Source of the DNA: Octopus vulgaris
Taxonomy: Eukaryota
Length of the DNA stretch: 64,000 nucleotides
NCBI GenBank assembly: GCA_951406725.2
Contig: OX597823.1
Location: 69,564,001 to 69,628,000 of the forward strand
Direction: 5' to 3'
A program made the position numbers and the translations under genes. The notes under the pieces were generated by a model that saw only the letters and a program-made list of their open reading frames with translations, ran no database searches and had not been told where the DNA came from. Shown here one piece after another: positions 7,311 to 64,000 of this stretch. Numbering within the stretch: the stretch's first letter is position 1; each line of letters begins with the position of its first letter.

Positions 7311-7315
7311 CATCA

Positions 7316-8127
7316 TGGCAGCGAGCTGACAGGGTGCTTATGACACCGGATGAAATGCTTAGCGGTATTTCGCCCGTCTTTACGTTCTGAGTTCAAATTC
7401 CATCGAATTCGACTTTGCCTTTCATTCTTTCCGGGTTGATAAATTAAGTAGCAGTTGGGTATTGGAGTCAATCTAATCGACTGGCCCCCTCCCCCAAAAT
7501 TTCGGCCCTGTGCCTAGAGTGGAAAAGATTATTATTAGTGTTGTTGCTGTTGTTGTTATTGTTATCATCATGGCAGCGAGCTGTCAGAATTGTTAGCGTA
7601 CTGAATGAAATGCTTAGCGGTATTTCGCCTGTCGCTACGCTCTGAGTTTAAAGTATGCCTTTCATCCTTGCGGGGTCGATAAACAAGTACCAGTTGTTAT
7701 CGGCATTTCTTCCGTCTTTTTTTACGTTTTGGTTTCCGATTTCCGCCATTCGGAGGTCGATAAAGTAAGTACCAAGCAAATACTGTGCTCCATGTAATAG
7801 ACTTACTCTCTCCTTTACTGACACTGTCCTAACATTTGAAACCATCATCATCATTAATGATGTTTTTGTTGTTGTTGTTTATGATGTTGTTGCTGTTGCT
7901 GCAACTCTATGCAAGGCGGCGGGCTGGCAGAATCGTTATAATGCCGGGCAAAATGCTTAGCGGCATTTCGCCTCTCTTTATGTTCTAAGTTCAAATTCCG
8001 CCGAGCCGACTATACTTTTCATCAATAACATAAGTACCAGCTCTGCACTGAGGTTAATATAATCGACTAGCCCATCTCCTAAGAAATTTCAGGCCTTGTG
8101 TCTATGGTAGAAATTTTGTTGTTGTTG

Positions 8128-8159
<32 letters not shown>

Positions 8160-8860
8160 GGTGGTGGTGGCGTTAGTGTTGTTGGTGCCTTTGTTGTTTA
8201 GTCCTAGAGTAGTAATGACTGAGCGATCTATCATTAAAAATTTCAATCCAATGAATTCTTGTCTGTATTTTTTCCATATTCTGTATTTTTTGCTGAATCA
8301 ACAAATTAACAAGCAAGATGACGAGCTGGCAGGATCGTTAGCACGCCAGGGAAAACGCCTAGCAGCGTTTCGTCTAACTCTAGATTCGGAGATCAAATTC
8401 TGCCGAGATCAACTTTCCCTTTCATCCTTTCGGAATCGATAAAATGAGCACCGGTTGAGCACTGGGCTCGATAAAATCGATTCGTCCCTTACCCCGAATT
8501 TGCAAGTCTTGAGCCAAAATTTCAAACCAATGTTTATACAAACAAGTAACCTAGAAGGTAGGTAATTGAGATCTTGATCATGAGGTCATAGATTCGATTC
8601 CTGGGACAGAAGGCGTGTAATGTTCTTGGCCAATTTACTTCACTTCATTAAGGCGGTGGGCTGACAGAAACGCTAGCACACAGGGCGAAATGCTTAGCTG
8701 TATTTCGTCCGTCTTTACGTTCTGAGTTCAAATTCCGCCAAGGTCAACTTTGCCTTTCATCCTTTCGGGGTCGATAAATTAAGTACCAGTTGCGTACTGG
8801 GAGCGATCTAATCGACTGCTCCTCAAAAATTTCAGGCCTTGTGCCAAGAGTAGAAAAGAA
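7316..8860 (+). mobile_element. Cluster of five same-orientation SINE family A copies (about 7316, 7572, 7915, 8318, 8652) mostly separated by trinucleotide repeats
   Basis: Repeated ggcggcgagctggcagaa...gttctgagttcaaattccgccgaggtcgactttgcctttcatcc motif. The A-box/B-box-like (gagttcaaattcc) head suggests tRNA origin. Confidence 0.9.
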
Positions 8861-13930: not shown

Positions 13931-14198
13931 CCAATTAGGTAAATAAGGTATGGTCGACCTGAAGCTATACAAAATAAAAACTTGCAAAAGATTCCACTTA
14001 AGGGAATTGAAATGGGATCAACAGGGTTAGAGAAAACTTCTTACCCATTCGGCTATACCCTGCCTACACATATCGACATACGTACACACATTCTCAAACA
14101 CATACACACAAACACACGCACGCACACACACAGACACACACACACATATATGGTTGTATGTATGTATATTTGCATACATGTATGCGTATATATATGCA

Positions 14199-14430
14199 AG
14201 GCGGCGAGCTGGCAGAAACGTTAGCACACCGGGCGAAATGCGTGGCCGTATTTCGTCTACCGTTACGTTCTGAGTTCAAATTCCGCCGAGGTCGACTTTG
14301 CCTTTCATCCTTTCGGGGTCGATAAATTAAGTACCAGTTGCGCACTGGGGTCGATGTAATCGACTTAATCCATTTGTCTGTCCTTGTTTGTCCTCTCTGT
14401 GTTTAGCCCCTTGTGGGTAGTAAAGAAATA
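14199..14430 (+). mobile_element. SINE family A, near-consensus full-length copy (tail type 1)
   Basis: Complete head, central domain and tail ending gggtagtaaagaaat. Confidence 0.95.
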
Positions 14431-14439
14431 TATATATAT

Positions 14440-17379: not shown

Positions 17380-17800
17380 TTCGGGTGTCCCATAAATAAT
17401 GCGGTTTTTATACTTTTATATTCAAAATTACTATAAAGAAAGTTTTTTTGTTAGTCTAAAATATACTCTCCATCTTCTACACTGCCCTTCGATCTATCTG
17501 GTAGATTTGCAAGTTCCGTCTTCCAAAATTCACTAGTATATGGCGAAAAATAAATACTCCTCCAGTACTGTACTGACCTCGTCTACAGAGTTCATATTTT
17601 TTTCGTCTAAATGATTTTGGAGACTGCGGAATAAATGATAATCAGATGGGGTAGTGTCCGGCGAATATAGTGGTTGGGGCATAGTTTTCCATTGAAACTG
17701 CACCAGCGTTTCGCATGTCATCTTCCCTGAATGTAGTTGAACATTGTTCTGATGAAAGAACATCTTTCGTCTTGAACCCAATGCTGGCCGTTTTTTATAA
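17380..17800 (-). mobile_element. mariner transposon 3' remnant with TIR
   Basis: ORF 17533-17781 contains FHQNN...YSPDTTPSDYHLFRSLQNHL (DD34D C-terminal motif). TA followed by ttcgggtgtcccataaataatgcg is TIR-like. Confidence 0.9.
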
Positions 17801-17806
17801 CTCTTT

Positions 17807-18287
17807 GTAGCTGCACGACAACGTGAAGTATATTTCCCACTTAAATGTGGCTAACCACTAAGGGTGGATGCTACTGTAGCTTGTAGCCCCAGGAGAACAT
17901 CTTCTCCAGCTGGCTATTGACACAATGTCTGTACCCTATTATTATTTGCAAAGGGAAGTCATCCTTCCCATCGTCGAACTGACGTGATACGCACGTACCC
18001 GAGTTTCTGGGTATTTACCCGTCGTCAGTGAGCGACAATCACCAGTCTTCCATGCGAAGGGGTCCCAATGCAAACACATGTATCCTTTTTCCAGAGACGA
18101 AAAGTCACTGATCTCGAAAAAGTGTAAACAAGCAATAATAAATCTCTGAACGAGGTATAAACAGTAGCTGCACGATAACGTGAAGTATATTTGCCATTTA
18201 AATGTTAGATGTCCTCCTGGGGCTACAAGTTACAGTAGCATCACCCTTAGTGGTTAGCCACATTTAAGTGGCAAATATACTTCACAT
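17807..18287 (-). mobile_element. Non-coding HHR-bearing element (retrozyme/PLE pLTR-like): 357-bp unit, 43-bp direct repeat and about 80-bp inverted repeat
   Basis: 17807-17848 is repeated at 18164-18205. 17823-17902 is inverted at 18207-18285. A second copy of the same segment lies at 61968-62064. Confidence 0.8.
17990..18034 (-). ncRNA. Type I hammerhead ribozyme motif
   Basis: Minus strand: cgctca CTGACGA c gggta-aa-taccc a GAAAC tcgg GTA cgtgcg. Core is intact, stem III near-palindromic, stem I imperfect. Confidence 0.65.
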
Positions 18288-19657
18288 TCTTTATACTCCT
18301 AACCCAGATTTCGCCGAAATCAACTTTACCTTTCATCCGGATTTAATTAACTGAGCTCTCCTCAGAGCGTTACGGTCTTGTGTCGTTATTAGTAATTATT
18401 TTTGTTTACATTATTTGAGAAGCATGGCAGAAACTTTAGGGTGATGGGCAAATGCTTTGTGCTAGTTAGTTAGGTTTTCTTTATTATGTTCTGAGTTATA
18501 GATCTCGTTATTATTACCCACTGTCAAATATTAGGGCTAGTTATAATTAACTATTCTCCTCCAACTAATGCCTTCTGACCCATGTTAACGTTACAATTTA
18601 TTAATGTAATTTACAGTTTTAGGTTTCAAGTACATTTATACAAATACTTTCTGCATTTATGAGCGAATTACTTTTAACAACCACTTAATCTAAGAATGTT
18701 TGGTATATACATTGTATTTTTCTCCTAATATCTCTCTTTGGTCTTATATTTAAGAAGTGCTTAACACCACATTACCTTTTTTCCAGGTGTTTATGAAAAC
18801 ATAAAGAGAGATCCTTGCAGTGTTCACACATGTAGAGTCTATTACATCGGTAACATTATTACATAAAAGCAGTTTGTCGCTTGAGACACTTGATACTTTG
18901 CAATCTTTTCTTCTACTTGATCTTAATGCTAGTGTTCCCATATACTAATGTATAAATGATTTCACGTTCTTGTCATGTTTCCAGAAGAATATGAAGTCTC
19001 TTTCTTTCGTCTAATAATTATACAGGAGGACAGAATGTTTCATATTCCTTTACACTGGGCGGTTGGTGTTCACAACTATTATTTCACAAGTCTTTTTGTT
19101 TGTTATCTTTCGTTTTTTTTTTGTGCACCATTACTGAACAACTCTGTGGGCCTCGGGTACGTAAATACTTTGGTTTCAAGATGTTTCATAACTTTCAATA
19201 AACACTATATAATATTATTCAATGCAATGTAGCGCTATTTCCTTTCTACTGTGCATGTGCGTAATACTGACGTCTTACGTTAGATATTTGTCTGCATCTA
19301 GTATAATCATTTCCGGGAAATCTGTTATTACAATGTCTGTTTCTGTTTTCACTCGTCAAATTCTGAATATTACTAATTGAATTTTGATGAGCTTCTCTAC
19401 TTCCATTACAGGTATATTGTCGTTTGTAGAAACGGAAGACTATGTTTGCAGTTCTTGATCGAATCGGTTAGACTTAGAGTTGTACGATGCATAAACACAG
19501 CCTAGGTGATAAGCACTTTCCATTGTGCGGGTGAACCCTTCTTATTTGTATGTTTTGTGTACTGATTTCAAGACCGTCTAAACGTATATTGTGCATTTAC
19601 CTATTCTTGTTTAACACATGTACGCACATACATGCGCTCACATACACACACATGTAG

Positions 19658-19829: not shown

Positions 19830-20312
19830 TTTTTCTTTATGGGTCGATGGAATATATATTACTTGAGCGTTGGGGTTGATATAATAAACTAGACCCCTTC
19901 CCCAAATATTTCAGACGAGTGCCTATAATAGAAAGCAAGGCGGCGAACTGGCAGAATCGTTTCCACGCCGGACGAAATGCTTAGCGGTATTTCGTCTGCT
20001 GTTACGTTCTGAGTTCAAATTCCGCCGAGGTCGACTTTGCCTTTCAACCTTTCGGGTCGATTAAATAAGTACCAGTTATGCACTGGGGTCGATATAATCG
20101 ACTTAATCCGTTTGTCTGTCCTTGTTTGTCCCTTCTGTGTTTAGCCCCTTGTGTGTAGTAAACAAATAGGTATGTCCTCAGCTGCTACGTGCTCAGTTCT
20201 GAGTTCCGCCGAAGTCGACTTTGCTTTTCATCCTTTCGTACCAGTTTCACACTGTAATCAACTGTTCTCCTCTCACCAAATTTCAGGCCTTGTGCCTATA
20301 GTAGAAAGGATT
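19830..20312 (+). mobile_element. Nested/tandem SINE family A copies
   Basis: Partial copy, then a full copy at 19939-20168 (tail 1), then the remainder of a copy ending in tail 2 (aatttcaggccttgtgcctatagtagaaagg). Confidence 0.9.
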
Positions 20313-25482: not shown

Positions 25483-26863
25483 TAGCTATTTTCGGCTTAA
25501 AGGAGTGTATGTGTGCTAAAAATCTTAGTTTAAAATTAACGGAGCGCCCTATATATACCATACTATGTGAACGATTAGTTAATGTAACCATGCATTTGTA
25601 TATTACGTTAAATCTTCTACAGTTGCCTACAAAGCATAATTATTTATTTTTACATGAAGAGTTTTTATTTTTATTTTTATTTTCCTGTTCAGATGAATAG
25701 TGCTTACTATTATTATGATTATTTGTGATGTATGGTATTATTATTGAATTTATTGTAGTATTATTTATCGTAGAGTTAGATACATTTATTGTTTGTGAAT
25801 TATTATTTTTATATTTATTAGCTTGTAGTGATGTATAATCTACGGCATTTCGTATATTTTCAAATGTATGGGAGTTAGAATTTTGCTGGGGTTTTGTTAT
25901 ATCAATGTTATTGTTAGGTGTTCCAGGATTTTGAGTATTATATATACTCATATAGCTACTTCTTATCTTGTTATTATTATTACATCTGCTTTTATATTTG
26001 TTAATTTTTCTTTTATTAGAACAGGCGATAATAGATCCTATGTTTAGTGTAGTAGAGAAGGATATTTTAATTGATGATCTATTAAATATGTGGCGATACT
26101 TATGATTCCTAGGGAAAGCTTTTTTAAAACTCTACTTAAAACCTTTTATGCTAAACCCTTAACATTTAATAAAAATGGTGGTGTGTACCATATAATTTTT
26201 CTCTTTCCTCTCCTATTAGGCAGTTTATCACATTTATATATTGATTTTGGGACTTTATATTTTTCACTGAGTTTTTATTGTTATTATTATATTTAGTTCT
26301 TTGCCTATCATTATTTTCTTTAGGTTTTTTATTGTATTGTGTAGAAGTTTCCTCATTTTGTATTCATTGTGTATTATTGTTATAGTTAAGGTGATCTTTC
26401 TTTCTTATTTTAGTATCACATACAGTTTTGTTTAATTCCATTTGTGCTATGTAAATTTTTAGTTTAGTATCCTTTATGTATTTAATATTTTGTTTGAATC
26501 CACTAGCAGCTAAAGCCTGATTGTAATAATTGCCATGATTATTAAAAATTTCTCCATTATGAGATAGGTCAGATATTCTAATAGATATACTATTCACGAT
26601 ACTTTTAAGTAATGATATATGATGATATGAATTATTTATATATTTAAAATATTCATTAGGTTTATGAAATGGAGAGTAGATTGAATTATTAAGGTCTAAA
26701 GTTACGTCTAAAAAGATTTGCTTTCGAATAACTTTCCTCGAATGTGATAGATAAACCAAAATTTAATAGTATTAATACTTTGATACAATAGAGCATTCAA
26801 TGTAAATTCAGAATATAATATTCTCATTGAATATATTTAACTAAAGATTTATATATATATATG

Positions 26864-27855: not shown

Positions 27856-28208
27856 TGGCGCGGTGTGTTTCCGTGTGTATGCGTGTATCTGTTTGTGGTG
27901 TGAACTCTCTACACTACATTTAATTTCTCTAAACAAAGTTCCCTTCATTTGCAATGATCAACGAACAATTAAACGCTGCCCCATTTTGTTAAATCTGAAA
28001 AATTTCCAAAAATGAATAAGTAAATATAGAAAATAGGATTATATTTCCTTTAATCTACTTTACCTTATCAATGATATTTGTTTCTGCGTTGACAGAGTAA
28101 AAGTATCTCGTGAATTTTAGTTATACATATATTAGTGTCCAGTGTTTGATACAGAAACGATTGCGTGCAGTTGTTACGGGTAGGGAAGAGAAACAGTGCT
28201 GCATTTAA

Positions 28209-28575
28209 GGCGGCGAACTGGCAAAAGCTTTAGCACGCCGGGTGAAATACTCAGCGGTATTTCTTCTGTCGCTACGTTCTGAGTTCAAATTCCGCCGAGG
28301 TCGGCTTTGCCTTTCATCCTTTCGGGGTCAATTAAATAAGTACCAGTTACGCACTGGGGTCGATATAATCGACTTAATCCGTTTGTCTCCTTGTTTGTCC
28401 TCTCTGTGTTTAGCCCCTTGTGGATAGTAAAGAAATAGGTATTTCGTCTGCCGTTACGTTCTGAGTTCATCCTTTCGGGGTCGATAAATTTTAAGTACCA
28501 GTTACGTAATCCCTTTGTCTGTCGTTGTTTGTCCCTTCTACGTTTAGCCCCCTGTGGGCATTAAAGAAATAAGGG
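28209..28575 (+). mobile_element. SINE family A with partial tandem second copy
   Basis: Full copy to about 28437, then a restart at ggtatttcgtctgccgttacg with a second tail 1. Confidence 0.9.
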
Positions 28576-29504: not shown

Positions 29505-30238
29505 AAGTAACCCGAAAAAATAACTGAGCTAAACCGCGCATACAGAAAAAGTGCTTAAGTTCTCTAAACCAATTATCTTAGGCTTAAGTAATTACTTATA
29601 TGTGAGTGGTCATCTACACATAAATAAGCCTAGATATCAAGTACAAACCTGATGTCGGTATGGTAGTGGATAAACGTAAGAAGTGGCATTCAAACAGTGG
29701 TTCTTCCTTGAGGAACAAATGAAAGAGGAATGCGACCAAATTATGCAACTATTACTGTGTATTGAAAGGAAACAGTGCTGCATTTTATATCAACTGGAAG
29801 ATAATTACATGTAAGCTACGCACAAATGTACCTAAAATGTAAAAATTGCGTAAACTGAGAAATATGTAATACTCAATAGCATTGATAAAGGAGTATATTA
29901 TAAAAATGTGAGATCAGAGATTCACTTCGGGAAATTCTTTCCTTCTGTTTGGAATTGTATAAAACTATAGACCAGAATGGATCTATCAAATAGCGACATA
30001 CCACGAAAACTTGCACACTCACCTAATTTCTTCATGCACTTGTTGTATCTTTAAAGAAACAATTTAACTACAGCTGTTTGGCAGAGATTTATGCTGAAGT
30101 TTGATATCTGAAACTGCCCTGTTTCGAAGTAAATGCATTTTCTCTTGGTATAGATTCATCATATTTGTGCTTGCATATATAATAATACTGTGTATATATG
30201 GTGCATATATATTTCTGTGCATATATGGTGTATATATA

Positions 30239-30466
30239 TTTCTTTATTACCCACAAGGGGCTAAACATAGAGGGGACGAACAAAGACAGACAAAGGTATT
30301 AAGTCGATTGCATCGACCCCAGTGTGTAACTGGTACTTAATTTATCGACTCCGAAAGGATGAATGGCAAAGTCGACCTCGGCGGAATTTGAACTCAGAAC
30401 GTAACGGCAGACGAAATACCGCTAAGCATCTCGCCCGACGTACTAACGTTTCTGTCAGCTCACCGT
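30239..30466 (-). mobile_element. SINE family A (tail 1)
   Basis: Reverse complement of 14199-14430. Confidence 0.95.
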
Positions 30467-32429: not shown

Positions 32430-34315
32430 TGAAACTTCTAGTCGACGATAAGGAGAACTTCGCAATAATTTTCCAATGGTGTGACGCACCTTGGTATTGT
32501 AGAAACGCAGTGAAATCAATTACAGAAATTGGAAAGATTTATAAAGTTTATAAAACGACAGGCTCTACAGTGGAGAAACTGGGAAAATTATCACGCTCAA
32601 TTTACAATACAGGACAGGAATTATTAGGAGTGAAAGAGATATCCGATTAGCGAAAGAAAAGTGTAGACAAAGCAGGAGGATCAAGAAAATAAAACAGTTG
32701 AGGAAGGAAAAGACCAGCCTAAGAAAGTGATGGAAATATGCTACAGAAGATGAAAAACCTGGCCTCGCGCTGTTGTATGACGATTTGAAAAGGAAATGTT
32801 GTTATGTGCAACGACATATCCGCCGATATGAGCGTCGAAAGGAGAGTAAAAGGACTTGGGGGCAGTTTCTGAGGGACCAGTACGGGTTTACTAAGAAGCT
32901 GTTCATGGAGCCGAAGAGTGGCTCTTTATTGTGCACAAAAGACGAATTGCACGCTCATATCAAAGAAAGAAAAAGCGCACCAGCCCCTGCCACCTCTACA
33001 TGGGTTAAATCATGTCTCAGAACCTGATATCGAACTCCAAATTGAGGACATCAGGGAGAAGAGGTGAATGATTTCGTGAGAAAAGCTAGAGCAAAAGTGA
33101 CCCAGGAAGTGATGGCGTCTCATATGAAGTTTATAAATATTGCAATCGTCTGCGAAAGAAGCTCTTTGTCCTACTCCGGCAGCTGTGGCGCGAAGAGACT
33201 CTAGTAGAGGATTAGTGTAAGGCAGGTGGTATATACCTGCCGAAGGAGGCCAATGCAGAGACTATAAAACAGTTTAAACCGATATCTTTATTAAATGTGG
33301 AAGGTAAGATCTTTATGGGAATCTTTCGAGGAGAACAGTGACATATTTACAGAATAACGGATATGTTGATGAATCTGTTCAAAAGGTCAGAATCCCCGGG
33401 ATCCCTGGATCCGTTGAACACTGTTTTCGATTTGGAAAGCGATCCAGGATGCCAAACAGAACAAGAGAAATCTGATCGTGGTATGGCTTGACCTAGCTAA
33501 TGCATATGGCTCAGTGCCACACGAATTACTGATGAGAGCCATGGACCACTTCCACATTCCAGACAAAGTGATCAAAATAATGGGGACGTATTATGACAGT
33601 TTCGAAATGAGGTTTACAGCTAGAGATTTTACAACAGATTTGCACCGATTGGAGATTGGCATTGCTGCTGGCTGTACAATATCTGTCACGGGATTTATCT
33701 TAGTCGTGGAGATGATTTTGGAAGCTGTGGATTTTTCGGAACAAATCGCCCATGTACAACCGCCTAAGAAAACCTTGATGGATGACGTGACACTTCTAGC
33801 TTCAGATAAACAAATCATGCAGAATGCCCTCTTGGGATTAGACGAACTAGTGAGGTGGTCAAAGATAAGGTTTAGAGCAAACAGACATTTATTAAGGAAA
33901 TGCAGAAATAATTTCAGTTTCGAATAGCGGAAGAAAGCATTCCAGCAGTCAAAGTAGAACCAGTCAAGAGCTTGGGGCGAGTACACGCTGGAACATTGTC
34001 AGATAGAGTTGCGGGATTGAAATTATGAAACAGGCCGAGGCTGGATTATCAGTGATTGATAACTCGAAGTTACCAGGTAACTATAAAATTTGGTGCTTGC
34101 AGTTCGGCTTGTACCCATGACTTTCGTGGCTACTTTTAATATACGAGGTAGCCTTGTCACGAGTTCAGATCATTGAAAAAAAATGTAATGTGTTCATTAG
34201 AAAGTGGCTAGGCCTACCTCGGATGTTGAACAGTTCAGCTCTTTATCGTAAAAGAGGTTCGTTGCAGTTATCACTAGCGTCAATATGTAAACTGGGGAAG
34301 ATACGGACATGGTTA
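32430..34315 (+). mobile_element. Decayed Hero/NeSL-like non-LTR retrotransposon (RT region)
   Basis: FKPISLLNVEGKIF; VWLDLANAYGSVPH; GIAAGCTIS; LMDDVTL; LPGNYKIWCLQFGLYP; IRKWLGLPR. Multiple stops and frameshifts. Confidence 0.9.
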
Positions 34316-35626
34316 TTAGTACATGGTTATTATCTCCCCTTTCCACAAATATCTCATTGAATATTGATTTCTCATATTGGTTCAAGGCCACATGTTTGGG
34401 TGAAGACACACTGACATAGAAAAAAAGCACAAGGCCTTATATTTTGGAGGAAGGCGTAGTCGACTATATATATATGTGTGTTTGTATGTGTATGTGTGTG
34501 TGCGTGTGTGTGTAAAATATTCATGTGAAAGCATAAATAAGATGAATCCTTACCAAGAGAAAATGCATTTATTTCGAAACAGAACCGTTTCAGGTGTTAG
34601 ACTTAAGCATGGATCTCTGCCAAACAGCTCTTGTTAATTTGTTTCGTTAAAGATATAAGAAGCGCATGAAGAAATAGGGACATTTCTAATAACAGATGGA
34701 CTTTTCTCGCTATTACATGGCAGGAAATCAATTTGAAAAAAGACAGAAATGAAGAATGGCTTTGTTTCGCTTTCCTTTTTCTTCCTTTTTTTTTCTTTTT
34801 TTGCTTCGAAATGTAAAATGCTGATAGAGAAAACAAATAGAATGATAATTTTTTCTGTTTGTTTTGTTTTTTTTCTTTTGTTTGTTTTACATTTTTCAGC
34901 TTGTAGCGTTTTCGTATTATATTTCTAACAGCTGTAAAAAAAATGCGAAAAACAATCCTGGTTAAATAATTCCTTCATGATGCTTGTTGTAATAACCGAT
35001 TTACATGTTCTGCTACGAAGCCAAAATTCTGAGGTAATGAAATATATATATATAGTTTCATATTACTACGATGTAACAATATTCCTTTTGATTGAATGTT
35101 TTCCACAGCAGAAAAGAAGTTCTGAAATACTAAATAGCCAAGGTTTTAAAAAAATGAAATTATCAAAAGCTTATTCTTTATATAGAAATACACAGCCAGG
35201 TGTGGGTTATTAACAAAGTTTTGAAAATATTAAAAGTGACGATATTAGAATTTCCATTTAGATGGTGATTTGTAAGAAACAGCCAGCCATCCGCGCCATT
35301 AATTTCTACAAATGTCTTTTTAAAGTTCAAATAAAGCTGCGAGTGTCCTTGTTAATCATTTGTCTGCTGAGTCAAAAAGACGCATACCACTTATATTCTT
35401 GCATTTATTCTAAGAATTCTTCTTCTTCCACTGCAATATTAGAATCCTACCGAAAGGGAAGAAATGTACGAACTTTTATGCCTTTATTTATGTATTAAAT
35501 ACATTAGTTAACAGCTGTATTGTGTGATATAACGGGATAAAACCGGACTGAAGGCAACTCATGTACGACATACAGTTGAATAATAGCGCAAACCCGTTCT
35601 TCTATTATTTTACTGACAAAATATTT

Positions 35627-36200
35627 ATTTCTTTATTGCCGACAGGGGGGCTAAACATAGAGGAGGCAATCAAGGACAAACAAAGGGATTAAATCGATTA
35701 CTTCGATGCCAGTGCGTAACTGTTACTCAATTTATCGGCCACGAAAGAATGAGAGGCAAAGTCGATCTCGGCGGAATTTCTTTACTACCCACAAGGGGCT
35801 AAACACAGAGAGGACAAACAAGGACAGACAAACGGATTAAGTTGATTATATCGACCCCAGTGCGTAACTGGTCCTTAATTTATCGACCCCGGAAGGATGA
35901 AAGGCAAAGTCGACCTCGGCGGAATTTGAACTCAGAACGTAACGGCAGACGAAATACCGCATAGCATTTCGCCCGGCGTCCTAATGATTCTGCCACCTCT
36001 CTGCCCTGTTACTTACAAAATATTGGCTTCAAATTTCGGCACAAAGACAGTAATTGGTGCGTATTTTATCGACCATGAAAGGATGAAAGTCGATCTTCAC
36101 GATCAACTTCGAAGTCGATTTGAACTCAGAACATAAATACGGACGAAGTACCATAAAGCATTTGGCCGGGAAGCTAACTGTTCTGCTAACTCACGCCTTA
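35627..36200 (-). mobile_element. Three nested/tandem SINE family A copies
   Basis: Tail-1 copies at about 35627-35779 and 35776-36005; an older copy at about 36025-36200. Confidence 0.9.
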
Positions 36201-42049: not shown

Positions 42050-43037
42050 TTTTTTTTCTCTGGTTTCAGCTCAGAGCTGCAGCCATACTGATGCACCGCC
42101 GTTTTGTGCTACACTGTTATTACGAAGAACCTCGTCTAATATGTGGCACTTGGTGAAGAATGGAGTTTGATATAGCTACCCTCATTTGCACCTCTTGCCG
42201 TGAGGTAGGTTCATCTGGGACTCTCGACAGGAAGATGCCCAGCTTTGATTTAAAAACCGCTACATCTACTTTGTGCAAGTTCCTCAGACTCTTTGGGAGA
42301 ATATTAAAAAGCGGTAGGCCCTTGAAACCCAGGCTGTTGCAGAAGCTGGTCCTGAAGCGTAATGGCATTGCTGGGATCTTTGGCACTATGCAGTGTCGTC
42401 CCGTTCTAGCATTGGTGTAGCTTACAATGCCAAAATTTGGCACAATTTCTTCCAGGATCTTCCAGACATATATTACTGCATACCTCTCCCGTCTTCTCTC
42501 CAGGGAGTAGAGTCTTAGCTGTTTCAACCTTTCGCAGTAGCTGAGCTGTTGCAAAGAGACAATCTTCTTTGTGAATCTTCTCTGGATTGCTTCAAGGTCC
42601 GCTGTTAATTTTACACTGGTGGGTGACCATAGCTGTGAGCAGTAATCCAGGCGGCTGAGGACGAATGTCCGCCAGAGGAACATCATGGTTTCCTTACCTC
42701 TGGTTCTGAATGTTCTTAGGATCCACCCAGCCAGTCGTCTGCACTTTGTCGCTATCCTGGTAATGTGCACTTGGAAAGAGGTATCATCACTCATGTCGAT
42801 ACCCAGGTCCCTCACAGACTTAGGCTCCGGGATTGATATTCCCTGTGGACCGGTGTTTCCTGTAAGTTTAATATTCAGTTTTGGATGCTGGTAGCGCAGG
42901 GCCTGGAATTTTTCAGCATTAAACTGCATATTATTATCCTCAGCCCATCTGTAGATTGAGTCCAACTCCTGCTGCAGGTGTGCAACATCGCTGGGGTTCT
43001 GTATTTTCTGCGAGACTATCGTATCGTCTGCGTAGTT
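42050..43037 (-). mobile_element. CR1-clade LINE, 5'-truncated; uninterrupted RT C-terminal reading frame plus 3' UTR
   Basis: YADDT...LQQELDSIYRWAEDNNMQFNAEK...VRDLG...LDYCSQLWSP...LYSLERRRER. The frame is open from about 43037 to 42120, followed by a short 3' UTR and A-rich tail. Confidence 0.95.
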
Positions 43038-43039
43038 GT

Positions 43040-44126
43040 TTAATGTTTTGCTAAAATTGCTACTTCTTTTCAGATATCAGGAAAAGGTAATTAAAATTCA
43101 TTAAAATGACGGATCTATTGGATTTGCAAAGAAGTCAAATTGTTGGTGCTCGTATGGCAGGTGCTAGCGTAACGAAAACAGCCAAAATGTTTGGTGTATC
43201 AAAAAGTTACGAAAGTAATGACAGTCTTTAAGAAAGAAGGAAAAACCTCCTCGTCGAAACAAAACTCCGGAAGAAAACCAAAACTTTCAGATAGAGACCG
43301 TCGGACTCTTATACGAATTGCTAGAAAGGATCAGAAAAGTATAGCTCACAAAATTACTGCAGAGCTTGATGACCACCTCGAGAACCCAGTTTTCACAAAA
43401 ACTGTTTGGCGGGAGCTGCACAAAGCTGGATTTCACGGGAATGGTGCAATCAGAAAACAACTACCTTCAAAAACAAATGTTGCATAGCGTTTAGAGTGGA
43501 GTAAAAACCTACAGAATTGGTCCCTAGATCAGTGGAAGAATGTTATTTTCTCAGACGCATCATTCTTTACCCTATTTCCGACCACCGGCCGCGTATACGT
43601 GTGGAAACAGCCAAAAGAAGTATCTGACCCAGACAGCCTTCTTCCAACTGATAAACATGGCGGAGGATCTGTGATGATTTCTGGGCTTATATATTGGAAA
43701 TCCACCGGCCCAATGATCAAGACTACTTAAGCATTTTATCTGACCAAATTCATCCTATGACTGCGGAATTGTTTCCGGAGGGAAGCGCAATCTTTCAGGA
43801 TGATAATGCACCAATTCACACAGCTAAAGTTGTTACTGAATGGCACGAGGAACATTCTAGTGAAGTTGAAGAGTATTATTGAACATTTAGGGTGCATTTT
43901 AGAAAATCAAGTAAGGAGTCGATATCCTCCACCATCATCACTACAAAAACTGGAGACTACTTTAGCTGAAGAATAGACAAAAATTCTTTTGGAAACAATT
44001 CAAACTTTGTGCAACTTCATCCCTCGTAGAATTCAAGCCGTAGTTACTGCCAAAGGCGGTCCTACCCCAAATTGAAATAAACTTGTTTGAAATTTTAAGG
44101 TGCTCCATTATTCTGCCCAACCCCTG

Positions 44127-49240: not shown

Positions 49241-50711
49241 TATATGTAATCATAATTCAATTTCCTTGCCTTCATTGCGTGCGATTTTGATCTTTCGAGA
49301 TAGAATAATTAAATATGTAGTATAGACCGAACGACAGCTGCACTTTCGTGCATTTATATTTCTAAAAATTCACGTTTTTATCTTTTCTTAATTTATACTT
49401 CATCACTATATTTCGTTATTATTTAATATTCATATTTTCATTTTGTAGTTTGCTACTATTTTTCTCCCATCCTTAATAGTCTTCTATAACACTTTTCACA
49501 TTTTGCCCTCAGTCTTTTCCTCGTTTAATTGCTTTAGTTCATTTAATTATATTTCTTAACAGTATTTGATTCGGTTTTGTGTCAGAATGAAAACAACATT
49601 ATCAATAAACACAATAGAAATCAATTCAAAATGAGTTTTTAAAATTACTCCAACCTCAAATCTGTTTCAGTTTTGAAAGGATTGAGTTATGCTTTATCTA
49701 AAGTAAACAGAATAAATAGGAAGACCTATTTTTTCTTTGAATCTCATTCATAAATCTCTTATAAAAGTATTTCAGAGAAATATGATAAACGAAACAAATT
49801 AGATTAAATATTAATTAGGCATCTCATTTCCCTAATCGTCGAGTTTTGCTGGAATATACAGCTTCTATCGAAAGAATGATAATACCAAACGCGATTTATC
49901 TTTGCTGGTAAATTATGCATAGTGAGCCAAGAAGGTAACTTCATCGACAGCAAAACAATTCTGTATGTTTTTTTAAACCACTTCAGCTATAAAGGTATTC
50001 ATTTAATTGGTAATTCTGTGAAAACACGTTTCTTCATTTCATGCAAGAAAGAAAGAAAGAAGTAAGGAGAAAGTCATGGTCTGAAACAAAACTGCGCATT
50101 ACTAGAACGCCAGGTATCCTAGTACGTTACAATCTGGATATGTTAATAGCTCTCTGTACTAAAAGAATGAGCTTGTTTTGTTAGAATACGTTGGTGTGTT
50201 ACCAGTCCATAGTCTAACATATAGGAAATACTTAAATAATCTAAGAGATAATATGAGCTCATGGAAATATATTCGGTGAAACCTAACTGCTTACCAGAGT
50301 TGCGCAACTTCTTAAATACCACAGAATAAAATCAGTATCAAGTACTACTAACTGGCATGTTACCCCTAGAAGCAGTGTATCTCAAAGCACATAAGGTTAT
50401 AAATAGTAGCATGTAAATATTAAGTTGAAATTCCCTTTTGGGTCCACGGGTCAACATCTGCGAGCATGACAGACGTTCTCCCATTACACCAAGCAATCCT
50501 TCCAGTCTCTCTATCAAATTTAGAAACTATATTCCACCAGCGAGGAGTATAACTTGTTGACATCATAAAAAATTATAAACTTCGGAGAGAACGCGATCTC
50601 AGGAAATTTATAATCCCTATAACGCCAATAATAAATATAAACACAGTCATATATATATATATATGAGTGTATGTGTGTGTGTGCGTGTATTTGTGTGTGT
50701 ACGTACATGTG

Positions 50712-51112
50712 TTTCTACCAATGCCATCTACTGCACCTCCTACTCTCTCTGCCCTTCTCTATACATCTGGCAAACGGGACGCCGCTTGGCTGACAGGTTC
50801 GCGGAACACCTCCGAAACATCCGACTCGGCAATGACACCTCGGTCTCGTGCCATTTCCGCTCTACCGGTCACTCTTTGCAACACCTCTCTGTTTTCGGAT
50901 TGTCCTTGCACAGGGACCATCCGGACTCCCGTTTGCGCCTTGAACAGGGATTAATCTTCTCTCTTCGCTCCTTTCCGCCACATGTTCTCAACACTCCCCC
51001 CTCTTCATCTAACCCCCTCCCCTCTCCTCTCTCCTTCTTACACCTACTTCCTCCCTCCCTCCCACCTCTCCTCTATTGCTCCGACTCCTCTTTACTCCCA
51101 CTCTCCTCTTTT
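50712..51112 (+). mobile_element. Neptune-type PLE GIY-YIG endonuclease fragment with pyrimidine-rich 3' UTR
   Basis: TNAIYCTSYSLCPSLYIWQTGRRLADRFAEHLRNIR...VSCHF...HS...RLRLEQGLIFSL...PHVLN. Confidence 0.9.
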
Positions 51113-52138: not shown

Positions 52139-52438
52139 GGAGAAAAGGAAGAAATGCAAATTAACACTTACTATTGATTAAAAGGAATGCGAAAGAAAGA
52201 AATATAAATCACATTTCTATTAATTTTAAAACTAAATTAAACAAGATCTGTGGGACTATACAAGATCACGCTAGCACACACACAAGAACAAGCACTCATA
52301 CACATGCACATACACACACAAGAATAAGTGCGCGTACACACACACACAGACATACATACATTAACTGCCACTCCATTAGGAGAAATACAGTATATATATA
52401 AAATATTACAAGCGTTGCCTTGTACAAAACTAGAAAGG

Positions 52439-52853
52439 AAAACTGCGTACGCTCAAAACAGTTACAGAATGTCATAATAAACCTTAAAATTATGGGACTA
52501 GCATTGTTGCTCAAAAATATTGGAGTCACTATATGTTGGACCTTCTGTGGTATCCTTTTATCACAAGAAATTTGTTTACTTTATCGACATCAAGTTATAT
52601 AAGAAATCGATTAAGTTAAATTATCGTGTCCTCAGTTTTAACAAAACATTTATGGATATGTACTAATGTGATATTTACGATATAATTCAATCTATGAAAG
52701 ATAATTTCGATGAACTAAAATTTTTTGTGATAGAAGAATGCCCCAGAATGTACAACATATAGTGATTCCAGTATTTTTGAGCAACTATGCTAGTCCCATA
52801 CTTTTTAAGGTTTATTATAACATTCTATAACCCTTTTGAGCATGCGCATTTTT
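52439..52853. mobile_element. Long inverted repeat (foldback/MITE-like), arms about 145 bp
   Basis: aataaaccttaaaattatgggactagcattgttgctcaaaaata versus tatttttgagcaactatgctagtcccatactttttaaggtttatt. Confidence 0.85.
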
Positions 52854-53643
52854 CAATAACATATATATATTTATGCAGGGTGCGTAAGATATCTGAGAAC
52901 AGATTTTGTTTATAAAACAACAGATATATATAATAACAGATAATAATTTTATTTATCAAAAAGTGTTATGAGGATATAAATAAACTCTCACACACACGTA
53001 TATATCTACGTATATATATGTAATTATATATATGTGTGTATTTTTGTTTGTGTGTGTGTGTGAGTGCGCATATATATATATATATAGACATAATATATAG
53101 ATACATGAATATATGTATGTATGTATATAGAATAACGTTGTTGAAAAAATGGTGCTTGCCATTTAGGAACATGCACATACCATGACATTCTTTTTACATT
53201 TATTCCATAACATTTGCGCAAACTATAAAGTGCCAAAAATTCTCGTAGGCCATCTGCGACATGATCACTGACTAGTTTCAGTACGTCTATTAAAAGCCGG
53301 TTATTAATCAGATTTTGAAAACTTTGATCTGTTTTTTCTTATATTAGATGTTTTCCATTTATTATTTACGTTCTTTTAAAAATGGAAGTTACAACTGAAT
53401 GATAACTGATATAATCGAATGCGTTTGAATACAGCGTTACGAGCCCAATATAAGTTTGTATCCAATAACTCTTGTATAAAATAAAGATGTCACAGAAACC
53501 CAGTTTGTAAAATTTTGCTTCACTCGTTAGCGATCAGCTATTAGATAATAAAGAGTGTTAGAATATCCAACACATTTTGAAGAATCCTTAAAGACAAAAC
53601 ACTTCTCAAGATATGCTTTAGTCTCACCTTCTTCCAGTAAATA

Positions 53644-54216
53644 TTGGATTATCCGGAAAGTTTGTGCCGATTTATAGTAGCTTACCTTTCGACTTATTTT
53701 AGAACATGGTTGAGTCCATAAAATAGGATTTGACTACACCTCAATTTAGAGCACAAGTTACGCTATATTTTCGTGGATGAAGGTTTATGTCCCTATAACC
53801 TATGTTAATTCTGTAACCCTTTAAAATGGAAGATAAGAAAATTCATTTTCGGCATTTGATGCTATTCTTTTACCGTAAAGGGAAAAATGCCTCACAAGCA
53901 ACGAAAGAAATATGCGCAGTTTACGGTGATGTTTCTTTATCCGAAAGAATTGTACGGAAGTGGTTCGCAAGGTTCCGAGCTGGAGATTGTAACCTCATTG
54001 ATAAAGAGCGAACGGGCAGAACATCCGCTATAGATGTTGACCAAATCAAGTCATTAATTGAGAATAATCCGCATTGCACAACCCGAGAATTGGCAGAAAG
54101 CCTCAACCTATCAAAATCCGTTGTTCATGAGCACCTGGTAAACTTGGGTAATGGCAAGTATTTATTGACCTTTTTCTTTCCTTTAGAAATCGGCACGAAC
54201 TTTCCGGACAACCCAA
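53644..54216 (+). mobile_element. Internally deleted mariner with both TIRs and TA TSD
   Basis: TA|ttggattatccggaaagtttgtgccgattt ... aaatcggcacgaactttccggacaacccaa|TA. Confidence 0.95.
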
Positions 54217-54227
54217 TATATCAGTGA
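53826..54227 (+). pseudogene. mariner transposase N-terminal bipartite HTH only (no catalytic domain)
   Basis: MEDKKIHFRHLMLFFYRKGKNAS..ICAVYG..VRKWFARFRAG..RTGR..IENNPHCTTRELAESL, open frame from ATG. Confidence 0.85.
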
Positions 54228-55966
54228 GAAGATGGACTTGGTACAGTGTCGGCCAAAATGACTCCCGCTATTTATTTATTGTTCTCTACCTGCTGAGTTT
54301 AAATTTGTCGAAGCTCACTTTATTTTCATTGATCTTTAACTTGATAAAATTAAGTACCAATCATTATATACCAGAGGTTTCTCTTATTGTTAGCTCCTCA
54401 TTCGGATACTAAACAACAGAAACAACAAAAGTATTTGTTGTTATTGATATTGTTGGTTGACCCCCAAATCATCCTTTATTAAGTATCCTTGTATTCAATG
54501 ACGTTTTCAGTAGTGACCATCATATCTCCCCCTTACTTGCAATAGTACTCCCAGAACCACATTATTTGTCTCCTTTATATGCATGATAGCATGGTGTAGT
54601 TTAAGTGAGATTTTACTATATGTCACAATACATAAAACATTTTGAACAATCTTTAAAAACAAAACACTTGTCAAGTTATGCTGTTGAAAATTTTCCAAGC
54701 TTCTCAGTGAATTAGAATCTATGAAAGATTTTGCGAATGTGTCATCCTGCATCTCGAATTGGCAGTTATGCAAGCTGTTAATAACTTACGACCATTCAAC
54801 TAGATTAACCTAGATGGTGCAAATCAATTGATATTATACTTGATGTCAGCAAAGATTTCAACTAACCAACATAATAACAATAAAATTTCTCAACACTCTT
54901 TAGACCATTGCAGCGTCAAGTGGAATCACTCGTTAAGCTACTATGATATAGTCAAAGAACTTCCAATCGTTTTTGTTTTCCACTTTTATTCAAGACTTTG
55001 CAGCAACATGAGCGTCCTTGTTTAAGATAGAAAATAGTTGCTTTGAAGAACAGTACTCTGCTTCTTTTTGCAGGTCTTGCGACCGTGTAAATTCTCTCTT
55101 GTTATTACTGCTGGAGCTAGTAGTGGTGTTATTAGTGGTTTTTAGCTTAATGATAAGCTGACATTTCCGCAATTCCCTCGTTTTTATTCAGTAATAGTAT
55201 ATCTAGGAGTACATTATCAATGCACACATTTTTGAAGGAAGTCGCATAGGATTTAAGAGACATTTGGCTGATGTTTCTAGCATTGTAGTCGTAACAATCC
55301 TTTCTTTTCTATTTCAGGGAAAATGCTATCTAATGTACTCTTTTTTTATATACGTTACTAGGTGTGAATTAGAAAAGAATTGTTATAATTTTTACCAGAT
55401 CAAGCGACCACGTTGAAGTATTTTGGAGCATGTTAGATTAAAGTGAAAGCAGCAGTATAACGGGGGAATATTTCAGGAATAGAAGCGGCTATGTATATGA
55501 AAATATTGTATATCTGTGCGGAGCTTTAAGAGAATGCAAAGCTTTGCATCATAATATTCAAATTCAAGAAATTCAAGGGCAATTTTAAAATGTGTATGGT
55601 TAACATCGTATTAAACAATCTGTGTGGGGATGTATTTGAAGTTTCAGGAAGTAATTAATTCGTTATGGTTCGTGGAGACAGAGAGGTCGACATATTACAT
55701 AAAGCTAACCGAAACACGGAAAGTGAATTACGGGCAAGGATTGCTAGATTTGATGATGCTGATAATGGTATCAAGTCGGCATTCAACGTATTATCCGTAG
55801 ATTTCAATTATAACCTTTGCCAGATATTCGAAAATATGTTTTCAAACTATAGTAGGCTGATGTACCTTGGGTTAAATTTTTTTCCGTAACTGCTTCATTT
55901 AGTTTTTAATAAATAAAACAACACCGGAAGGAGAAAGTGTTTAGTGTGAGCCCTAATTGGATTTAA

Positions 55967-56186
55967 CCCATTAATACATAACGTTCAGAAAAATGGACGC
56001 AGGAAACATTACTATTGCTCGTTAAGTAACTACCTATTGAGCTTATTTTTGGTATAGTCTGCCTCTAAACTAGTGCTCTATGAGTGAGCAAGTACTGCAT
56101 ACAAACAAACCAACTATACACACGTACGAAACAAGTAAATACTAATTTTCCTGCATCCATTTTTCTGGACGCTACGTATTAATGGG
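55967..56186. mobile_element. piggyBac-type MITE, 220 bp
   Basis: TTAA|cccattaatacataacgttcagaaaaatggacgcaggaaa ... tttcctgcatccatttttctggacgctacgtattaatggg|TTAA: about 40-bp TIRs, CCC/GGG ends and TTAA TSD. Confidence 0.92.
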
Positions 56187-56464
56187 TTAAAGGAGGAATG
56201 TAATGATAATGGATTTGAGTATCGAAATGGACAAAGTACTAAGGTAAGCTAGGCATTCGCGTTTAGTCACAGTATAGAAGGATTTTATATCGATGGCAAA
56301 TGATGGGCGAGGCGACCTGGACTTAAGTAAGAAGAATTAATATAGGGTAAACCATGGTTGGTATCTTTCTGCAACGTCCATACTGCTAGAAATGATACAT
56401 TGCTCGAGGCTTGTTTATACGTAGGTATTATGATGAGGTTTGTTTAGGCAGTTATCTTGCACTT

Positions 56465-56855
56465 ATCTGGCAGAATCTTTAGAACGCCAGAAAAAAATGC
56501 TTCGCGGCTTTTCGACCGTCTTTAATTTCTGAGTTCAAAATCCTCCGGGGTTGACTTTGCCTTTCATCCTTTTGGAGTTGAATAAATGAGTACCAGTTGA
56601 ACACTGGGGTCAATGCAATCGATTTTACCATTCTCCTGAAATTGCTGGTCTTTGCCTAAATTTGAAACCATTATGACGAGGTTTGTTAGGCAGCTAGAGA
56701 GAAGAATCGTTAGCACGGCTTTAGTTCAAATTCCGCCAGGTCGACTTTGCCTTTCGGTATCGATGTAATAAGTATCAGCCGAACACTGGGGTCATTGTAA
56801 CCGACTAAGCCCCTCCCTAAACATTTTAGGTCTTGTACCTACAGTAGAAAATATT
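56465..56855 (+). mobile_element. Two tandem SINE family A copies (tails 3 and 2)
   Basis: gactttgcctttc core occurs twice with different tails. Confidence 0.85.
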
Positions 56856-58710: not shown

Positions 58711-58752
58711 TGTGTGAGAAGTATGACATGCTTATATATATTCTCAATACCT

Positions 58753-58903
58753 CAAACTCCACCGATGTCGACTTTGCCTTTCATCCTTTCGGGGTCGATA
58801 AATAAAGTACCAGTTTCGCACTGGGGTGGATGTAATCGACTTAATCCTTTTGTCTGTCTTTGTTTGTCCCCTCTATGTTTAGCCTCTTGTGGGTAGTAAA
58901 GAA
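58753..58903 (+). mobile_element. 5'-truncated SINE family A with 19-bp TSD
   Basis: atatatattctcaatacct at 58734-58752 and 58904-58922. Confidence 0.92.
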
Positions 58904-59499
58904 ATATATATTCTCAATACCTACCGGCAGATTCGAGCGCAAATATTTGCTACTGTATACCTCACATGAAGCATCTTTCCGACGACAGTGTTCTTAAGTC
59001 ACTTGATCCACTGGTGTAAGTAATTCTGTGATACTGGTGTCTCGATGTGTTGTGTCTCCTAAACCACAAATATACGGATCTTTTAATCTAAACAAGAGCC
59101 GGTAACCATGCTTATAGTTTCAGTGAACTCTTCGTTCACTGATTCGTGCTGATATTCACCGACCGATAATATGTATTTTATTCGCTCAGTAAACGGTTCT
59201 TGTTCATAGTCAAACGTCTGGTACTTCTGACTGATGACTATTAAGTTGCTCAACCATCTCAATGCTTCATGGTTGGCTCACAATGGTGTATTTAAGATAT
59301 TATCATAGAACAAATATAACGTTTATTTCCATTTTTTCGTAATTAATGTTCTAAAATATGATTAAATAGTAAATGTGTGAGCATGAGTGCACATGTGTGT
59401 ATATGTAGGGTGTGTGAACTTAAATAAACTTTGATATATTTTGTTCTTTGTTGGCTTACACCATATCAAACACTTAATATGACTGCTTAGTAAGCTTCT

Positions 59500-61733: not shown

Positions 61734-61967
61734 AAACTTACTATTACATTCTTTTATAGTTGTTAAACTATTTTGTTTATATCATCATTATTTCAAAATC
61801 ATTTTTATGATTTTTCTTTTTAGTAATAGAGGATGAAAGAATTTGAAATTGGTTTCTTCCGGATACTTTCATTTGAATCGAATTTCCCACTCTTATATTG
61901 ACTTTTCTATCGCATATTTATGACTGCCCTTTTACCTTGTCAGATAATTTATTATATTAACAATATA

Positions 61968-62064
61968 TCGTGAAGTTTATTTGCCATTTGAATATGGCTA
62001 ACCCCTAAGGGTGGATGCTACTGTAGCTTGTAGCCCCAGGAGGACATCTCGCTCAGAGATTTAT
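61968..62064. mobile_element. 97-bp inverted-junction insertion of the 17807 family, with 13-bp TSD
   Basis: 61969-62049 matches 17822-17902, and 62048-62068 matches the reverse complement of about 18134-18154. tattaacaatata at 61955-61967 and 62065-62077. Confidence 0.9.
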
Positions 62065-64000
62065 TATTAACAATATAGTAATAAAAGATTCGTGGCAGGG
62101 ATCGAACTAACTCCATTGCCTTTCAAATCCAATCTATTTGCTCTGTCTCATCCAGTGATCAATTAGAATGATTGCCGTTATTTCATATGGAAAATTTGTT
62201 TTACAGATGACACACAGTTGCATATACACCGAAAGATATACACATCATCATACAATCACACAGTTCTGTTTATACAAAGAAATAAAACAGTGGTATGTAA
62301 CAATCACAAATAAGTATATAGATATACACAAACAGATAAACGGATAGATATCACATTTCCTAGAACATATTAAGACACGCAGATTCATAAAGTAATATAC
62401 AGATGCGCACTCACTTACGTACACACACAATAATACACACATGCGACCAAGTGTCTGTAAAGGTATATACACAAACATGTAGAGAAAATACAAAGAACTA
62501 TGTTCAATGAAGAACTTGTAATGTCCAATGTAAAGACTAATTGACAAACTCTGCTTTCTTCCCAATTTATACCAATTATTTAATTGAAGTAGAATCTTTT
62601 AGATGATCTCTTAAGGATTATGAAATTTATTTTACTCCAGTATTTAAGATCTAACCATGCTTTCTTTTCTTTGAAGTCATGTAAGCATTCATAAAATATT
62701 GTTTCTTGTACTAAATATTTTAAAGTTGGACGCAAATAGAAAAAAGAACTTGTAGAATATCAATCAAATTAATAGAGATTGAATTTTCTCTTTCATCAGT
62801 TAAACCAGATAAAACCAAAGGTATAACACAGAGATAACAGAGATAACGTGGTTACAAATGCGATATTCAACTCACGAAACACCTGAGCGTTAGCACAATT
62901 ACAGAATTTACGTATTTTCTTTGAGAAATAATTTGATAGTGGTTTTACATTAAGAAAATTTCACAATTCATTTGTCACTATTTCTTCCTTCTGTCACAAT
63001 AATCGAATACTTTTGAACAACAGTAATTGAGAGGCGCCAAACTAGATGACTTGTCTTGTAGTATCTATAACTTTATATAATGCTAGTGATAAGTTTCGTT
63101 TTATTTTTCCCAGGCTTCTAAATAAGTCGCGATCATAAATCTGACTATTTATGTTCAGCAATGTACGAAGTTATATAAAACTTATGTTAATATGCATTGT
63201 TATCTCCTTCTCAAAATATACTATTTCACAAAATCCCTCCAAATGTGAAAATTTAGATTTTCATTTGAACTTTTCGGAATTAAACCTATTTCCAGCAACA
63301 TCTCCGATTTTAAAATATTGTTCATCGCAAACAGGATTGCAATAAAATAGATTCAAATTGTAAACAGAATTCTAATGGAACTGGATACATGAGATATTGT
63401 TCTTAACTCATTACATTTCCTATTCATACTGTTCAGTGTATCCTGTTTACATAAACCAGCAGGAGAGAACTGGCTATTTGTAGTATCAATTTTCCAGTCT
63501 TTTATTACATTTAATGACTTCTATAATCTCAAAACCAGTATATTAGTGATACTGAATATTATATGTCGAACTATAATTTTCATATTTATAAGTACGCAAT
63601 AGGATCCATTTGTAAATATACTTCGAAACTTTAAACGGAACATTAGATAAGCGAGCTTTATCAAACGTTGCAAATATTACTCGTCGCACATATTATTGTC
63701 TAGAAGTGTAGGCGTGCTTATGCATTTTAAGAATTCACTTTATCAACTACCATGTTTTAAGTTCTCTTCGACAGCACTGAACCCTGGCCAAGTATTCTCT
63801 GTCTTAGCTTTGAGGCAGCCAAAACCATGTGAAAACGACGAACGTGAAGAAACAATATGTTCCAGGATCATCGGCTGCAAACTGTTAGTGTAATGTACTG
63901 TTGCCAATTATTAACCATTGCCTTTACAAAAGTGTCTAATTGTGGCGAACCAGAACAATGATTGAGGTGGCTGTTATGAAGATCTAACAATACAGCGACG

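Follow-up and report, generated by a model that had tools for sequence, protein, structure and literature searches.

Nearly coincident flip points in two head-to-head insertions of a retrozyme-like repeat in Octopus vulgaris, probably made by a Penelope-like enzyme

Two copies of a retrozyme-like repeat in the Octopus vulgaris genome switch strand in mid-element, and the first-pass annotation placed both switches at the same nucleotide, reading that point as a fixed end of the RNA (a start site or a second processing site) or a hairpin-primed step in integration. The question is what the coincidence reflects. The window analyzed is a 64-kb stretch of contig OX597823.1 with 35% GC and abundant microsatellites and dispersed repeats. 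It holds the family at two loci, locus A (17807-18288) and locus B (61968-62064), and nhmmer found no further copies in it. A short dispersed repeat is present in roughly 10 copies of 70 to 93% identity (14197-14435, 19936-20168, 28207-28570, 30231-30465, 35620-36008, 58752-58919, 7314-8860, and 56467-56670), some of them partial tandems (35627-35927, period 148). Self-inverted stretches at 52438-52854, 2004-2113, and 55962-56191 (110 to 420 bp, 71 to 88% identity) are MITE-like or fold-back in form.

At locus B, a 97-bp insert lies between exact 13-bp direct repeats at 61955-61967 and 62065-62077, as first annotated. This target site duplication (TSD) is AT-rich (A/T at 12 of 13 positions), and a direct repeat of that length has a chance probability of about 10−5 (25 offsets, local composition). 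The inversion is real, the two arms of the insert aligning to opposite strands of the unit. The inverted arm, antisense to the ribozyme strand, occupies 61968-62049 (plus strand) and corresponds to unit positions 17822-17902 in the numbering of locus A (61969-62049 aligns to 17822-17902 on the same strand with 91% identity; 73 of 80 positions are identical to 17823-17902). The sense arm (62050-62068, minus strand) comprises only the last 15 to 19 nt of the family (18152 to 18134), with 62048-62068 aligning to 18154-18134 on the opposite strand, and 4 nt of it are common to the TSD. Between the arms lies a junction microhomology (62048-62050), 2 nt long when scored on the window unit and 3 nt long with the C that the family commonly has at 17903 (86%, 54%, and 98% of the depth in DNA contig sets X1, X3, and X11): 62048 and 62049 fit both arms, and 62050 does so too if 17903 is C. 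Because 2 to 3 nt fit both arms, the break can lie anywhere in 17900-17903.

Locus A begins with a sense arm (17807-18205, minus strand) holding 1.1 units of a 357-nt noncoding repeat, i.e., one unit plus 42 nt, seen as a 42-nt direct repeat (17807-17848 and 18164-18205). One base that fits neither arm (18206) separates it from the inverted arm (18207-18288, plus strand), which is the reverse complement of 17902-17820 with 94% identity (76 of 80 identical to 17823-17902), so that the inversion annotated at 18207 is real as well. The inner break is exactly 17902. The claim that both loci flip at the same nucleotide is thus exact for A and holds for B only to within 17900-17903, a coincidence expected by chance in 3 to 13% of cases (four arm pairings, span dependent). 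The annotation missed that the loci share their outer end too (17820-17823), and with it the same piece of ∼81 nt. It had also read the TSD as a sign of mobility, which stands for B as a true target-duplicating insertion and does not extend to A, where we found no exact TSD and only candidates with 6 of 7 and 10 of 13 matching positions. The best of these (17794-17806 versus 18290-18301, 10/13) resembles the reverse complement of unit positions 18149-18161 (11/13), just past the start of the arms, and the target at locus A may have been paired with the RNA before priming. On its left, locus A cuts off a mariner-type transposase remnant (17380-17806, minus strand), the translation of which we take, from its motif, to be the end of a mariner-like transposase; a second such remnant (53817-54227, plus strand) carries a Mos1 HTH domain (E = 3 × 10−22). 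The right flank matches a piece of a dispersed repeat.

We took the minus strand as sense, so that each locus consists of two 5′-truncated arms joined head to head with their 3′ ends outward. The family unit has a period of 357 nt, is circularly permuted, has 45% GC, and contains stops in all three sense frames, which makes it noncoding; there is no open reading frame (ORF) within it, no ORF of at least 120 amino acids overlaps either locus, and no LTR arrangement was found at A or B. It folds better than its shuffles on both strands (z = −3.3 for minus and −3.7 for plus) and is highly self-paired. Contigs cross from 18196 to 17841-17867 and run through 18081 and 18130, indicating that the unit is circularly continuous; no piece among those listed spans all of it.

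A putative type I hammerhead ribozyme with a minimal helix III lies at 17990-18033 on the minus strand (motif, 17996-18028), with a predicted cut after 17996. By itself the loose hammerhead pattern lacks significance, since 5 matches are reached in 11 of 100 shuffles. The call is strengthened because the common family alleles improve the motif: the window copy has GUA at the predicted cut and the family GUC (17996 T>G, 91 to 99% of the depth), 18029 T>C stands at ∼87 to 91% and 17999 C>T at 36 to 52% of the depth, and the family alleles supply a closing pair for stem I and, often, a palindromic loop III. Read in this way, the motif fits the type I hammerheads with a short palindromic helix III that occur in Penelope-like elements (PLEs) and metazoan repeats, as described in the excerpted text of PMC4209133. 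Rfam returned no match at the gathering score in the window and, near locus A, five weak matches, none of them a ribozyme; the two to microRNAs reflect the inverted repeat. Matches to the hammerhead pattern in metagenome, prokaryote, and viral collections (0, 0, 0, then 1 and 2) were dropped as chance because the similarity of the three outside loci was limited to the pattern itself.

The flip point lies in a GC-rich hairpin (17892-17907, minus strand; folding and allele table). As previously annotated, this stretch folds in the minus-strand RNA, where it sits within a longer stem-loop (−15.5 kcal/mol; z = −2.3), and its distance from the hammerhead site, put at ∼95 nt, is 94 nt from 17902 to the predicted cut. 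The variants at 17896 and 17903, which are given unphased, all keep the pairing in this RNA (A-U, G-C, or G-U). No short hairpins of the sense RNA are more stable than this one and a second at 17953-17969, 61 nt away. The two are alike, with 6-bp purine/pyrimidine stems and similar loops of 4 to 5 nt, and could be repeated protein-binding sites.

Other copies of the family were drawn from 4 of 24 public runs, with three DNA contig sets under three species labels (X1, X3, and X11) and one set of RNA reads (X24) aligned to 17785-18206 at 80% likeness. The unit drew 7,606, 6,606, and 3,459 contigs from X1, X3, and X11, respectively, and 437 reads from X24. Loose ends were examined as the best 24 of 1001 rows by support over the four runs, 18 of these rows coming from the DNA. 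They mark a zone of recurrent ends on the minus strand (18081-18179). The listed ends fall at 18081 (at least 40, 52, and 31 contigs in X1, X3, and X11), at 18130 (at least 38, 52, and 31), and at 18135 (at least 43 in X1 and at least 18 in X11, with no X3 row among those listed). The flanks at these positions are unrelated, mixed, and AT-rich, with a (TA)n-like consensus at 18130 and 18135 in all three DNA runs. These positions are 3′ ends of the family. Position 18179 (= 17822) is probably another recurrent 3′ end, which brings the spacing in the zone to 44 to 49 nt. It rests on few records, namely, 34 reads of X24 that cluster at 17824 next to (TTA)n, 3 of the 24 listed long pieces starting there (P = 2 × 10−4), and the outer ends of loci A and B. 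Part of the pile at 17822 may be an alignment effect: of those 24 pieces, 4 begin at 17943, next to substitutions that the window copy alone carries.

The sense arm of locus B stops at the recurrent 3′ end 18134/18135, and the outer end of its inverted arm is the probable family end 17822/18179. The arms thus begin at 18179 and 18135, leaving a 44-nt extension on one side only. The left end of locus A (17807 = 18164) is absent among the listed family 3′ ends. Loose ends at 17844, 17915, and 17972 were rejected as alignment breaks, the letters beyond them being family-like, as was an X24 row at 17903. Loose letters at 17924 and 18191 (60 reads in X24; 2 contigs in X11, median of 131 nt), on the side toward the 5′ end of the sense RNA, might continue into a longer parent element.

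The inner junctions of other copies were less regular. Joints were taken as the best 15 of 89 by support, and 37 unlisted rows of a companion table may hide letters inserted between the arms. Five of the listed joints change strand (17856/18124, 17894/18175, 17902/18148, 18014/18079, and 18020/18194), their orientation, head to head or not, not being given. Their ten ends fall at unit offsets 11, 30, 49, 87, 95, 207, 213, 272, 317, and 341. One joint of the five has an end at 17902 (P ∼ 0.08 to 0.18 by chance). It comes from an X3 contig, has at least 36 letters on each side and a 1-nt microhomology, and, with 18148 as a third partner, is neither A nor B. A further joint, 17894/18175, was seen in X1 and X3 and brings the ends within the 16-nt hairpin to 2 of 10 (P = 0.07 to 0.19). 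The share of inversions that use the 17902 site has a 95% interval of 0.5 to 72%. Dispersed junctions in other copies, the outcome named in the original claim as its refutation, are largely what this small sample shows, with 9 of 10 ends spread. This count omits three joints close to the hairpin that keep their strand (17863/17905, 17898/18142, and 17894/17943), since alignments can break at the alleles that the window copy carries at 17896, 17900, and 17903; including them would favor a hot spot. The summed contig depth across 17875-17919 drops ∼10-fold in X1 and less in X3 and does not drop in X11, a pattern that we left unused, as such depth does not measure copy number and the common alleles there are not those of the window copy. 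That A and B flip at nearly the same point is likely due to coincidence or to a weak preference and not to a fixed RNA end. The hairpin may be a weak hot spot, given that a third copy breaks there too. The open-licence literature, searched by title and start of abstract, yielded no map of inner-junction hot spots in PLEs or retrozymes and no description of this family.

On balance, we think that loci A and B probably represent truncated arms joined head to head and inserted by a Penelope-like enzyme that copied RNA from both ends of the target. The 3′ ends on the outside would then be the points that recur, with an inner junction that can probably vary freely. The minus strand would be transcribed as a multimer or circle, and a GIY-YIG/reverse transcriptase (RT) protein would nick the two strands of AT-rich DNA 13 nt apart. 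Each nick would then prime a cDNA at one of the internal start sites (18081, 18130/18135, and 18179), and priming at different sites would leave a tail of 44 to 49 nt at one end only, as at locus B. Both cDNAs would stop early and be joined through 1 to 3 nt of microhomology (locus B; 1 nt in the X3 contig) or, at locus A, through template jumping that adds one base. A and B would share their outer end because one arm of each began at the same preferred start site, and that both arms stop ∼81 nt on, at the hairpin, would be chance or at most a weak preference. The anatomy, the TSD of locus B, the recurrent outer ends beside AT-rich DNA, and the scattered inner junctions are observed; the steps themselves we infer.

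Much of this picture has precedent in endonuclease-bearing PLEs (Penelope/Poseidon, Neptune, and Naiad, with their pLTRs). Common to both are a head-to-head inverted 5′-truncated arm, a partial tandem, more than one internal 3′ end, targets that are AT-rich or (TA)n, and a hammerhead, here predicted, with a short palindromic helix III; a tail confined to one end may be a further shared trait. According to the available parts of PMC8557442, PLEs typically carry an inverted 5′-truncated copy and a 30- to 40-bp tail at one end, and inserts with an inverted pLTR have TSDs of 8 to 10 bp (PMC3846280, in part). The Poseidon protein of the anole cleaves and extends both strands, favoring DNA that is AT-rich; it has two adjacent internal sites of RT initiation, which set the tail, and can dispense with hammerhead cleavage in vitro (excerpts of PMC11167929). 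The family differs from these elements in that its unit has no ORF between repeats and runs on into itself, lacking the autonomous PLE hallmark of an RT plus GIY-YIG ORF between pLTRs, and in its end spacing (44 to 49 nt versus the published 30 to 40 nt), which counts against a Penelope-type insertion. So do the left end of locus A, off the listed 3′ ends, its lack of an exact TSD, and the two joints (17902/18148 in X3 and that at 17894) that place 2 of 10 ends in the hairpin.

A linked autonomous partner was not found, which also speaks against this reading. The window holds a GIY-YIG endonuclease domain remnant of the type found in PLEs (50711-50998, plus strand; Atlas feature score, 0.95), with no Pfam match and no DNA similarity found to the 357-nt unit. 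The remnant suggests that endonuclease-bearing PLEs exist in this genome and is itself unlinked to the unit. Broken AT-rich frames at 25640-26762 (minus strand), including one at 26367-26762, resemble the end of a Penelope-like RT; Pfam and Atlas gave this no support, and the latter frame was dropped as a PLE RT piece.

A variant that we regard as possible, at clearly lower probability, keeps Penelope-type priming of an animal retrozyme and makes the conserved hairpin, which lies 94 nt downstream of the hammerhead site, a real hot spot that sets the stop of the second cDNA. A cDNA begun at 18179/17822 would stall there, or fold back and be opened in the loop, and the recurrent 81-nt piece would be reused to seal the second end. 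Locus A (17902), locus B (17900-17903), and the X3 contig (17902/18148) all break at the hairpin, with 17894/18175 close by; the hairpin ranks second in stability among the 24-nt folds of the sense RNA and keeps its pairing in the variants; small deletions recur at 17900 (6 to 19 contigs per DNA run); and self-priming was proposed in 2013 for the palindromic head-to-head inverted junctions of Penelope (PMC3846280, in part). Against this stand the count of 1 in 10 independent ends within 17900-17903 (P = 0.11 to 0.18) and the loose ends, none of which lies at 17900-17903 among the 18 listed DNA rows, compared with 18 to 52 contigs at each 3′ end. In addition, at 17896, 17900, and 17903 the window copy does not carry the common alleles, a difference that can itself break alignments, and a fold-back origin of the locus A junction was rejected because the junction lacks the microhomology.

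That the enzyme of an ordinary LINE (RTE or CR1 type) made the inversions by twin priming on one RNA, with no Penelope enzyme, is improbable. It would account for the 13-bp TSD and junction microhomology of locus B, and on one RNA the inversion would have deleted ∼25 nt at locus B and duplicated ∼28 nt at locus A; LINE RT remnants (RVT_1 in Pfam) are present in the window at 42120-43076 (minus strand) and 33418-33927 (plus strand). In the model of Ostertag and Kazazian from 2001, however, the second arm reportedly starts wherever the target overhang matches, and here it starts at one site in both A and B. Moreover, the 3′ end of locus B has no poly(A) or simple-repeat tail, and the family has several discrete internal 3′ ends. 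L1 inversions with deletion and with duplication have both been described (PMC12350158, in part), and the L1 twin-priming 5′ inversions resemble the present loci in having a TSD-flanked insert, an inverted arm, junction microhomology, and a small deletion or duplication between the arms; they differ in their poly(A) tail, absent here, and in that the arms here appear to start at family-specific internal sites. Type I hammerheads, furthermore, accompany PLEs (PMC4209133, excerpted).

The fixed RNA end of the first-pass proposal, taken as a 5′ end at 17902 (a start or second self-cleavage site) at which cDNAs run off their template, fares worse, and we consider it very unlikely. Three junctions lie at or beside 17902, which is what it would predict, but 4 of the 5 listed inversions break elsewhere, many long pieces pass through 17902, and no Rfam ribozyme matches. 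In X24, no pile of RNA ends is listed there and the depth rises from 221 to 235 across the position; this is a weak negative, the 437 reads (∼6% of the run) being fragmented, apparently unstranded, and under another species label, and the hammerhead cut site shows no pile of ends either in the same reads in both directions. Equally improbable is descent of A and B from one source copy that was already rearranged: the ∼81-nt piece with its two nearly equal ends is common to both, but the flanks, the starts of the partner arms (18205 in A versus 18152 in B), and the alleles at 17840 and 17857 (both common in the family) differ, and the inverted arm of A is nearer its own neighbor arm (76/80) than B (73/80), so that the two look like independent insertions, as the annotation had it.

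The family agrees with the non-LTR retrozymes and behaves like a nonautonomous Penelope-like passenger, an architecture that is already known. Animal retrozymes have units of 170 to 400 nt, type I hammerheads, and TSDs of >4 bp (PMC7229834, by Cervera and de la Pena in 2020, and PMC7761336, each in part). Non-LTR retrozymes as a class are marked by noncoding units of ∼150 to 400 nt, tandem copies with at least two ribozymes, self-cleavage, circular RNA, and the lack of a PBS, PPT, or LTR. The octopus family shares with them a noncoding unit (357 nt, against 350 to 390 bp in mussels) with GC below 50% (PMC7229834), one type I hammerhead per unit, a self-paired fold, many copies, and a TSD of >4 bp (13 bp at locus B). 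It differs at locus A, which has one predicted ribozyme only (1.1 units) and for that reason falls outside the two-unit definition of an active retrozyme. A term search of the available text of PMC7229834 and of a 2026 preprint by Li et al. (10.64898/2026.07.22.740005) did not find inverted arms or tail-defined ends; the word "inverted" occurs 0 times in the former text and once, in a reference title, in the latter.

How PLEs form their inverted ends is still called undefined (PMC8557442, in part). If true, a stop set by the hairpin would be a sequence-encoded rule for these unexplained ends. A fixed inner junction would matter more, and the evidence for one is weak. The thousands of short copies of the family are material for junction mapping. 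The retrozyme-PLE link otherwise rests on co-occurrence and phylogeny, by which Li et al. tie retrozymes to pLTRs (10.64898/2026.07.22.740005, in part); in this family a retrozyme-type unit bears the insertion signature of Penelope, and its ends lie far from the ribozyme cut site.
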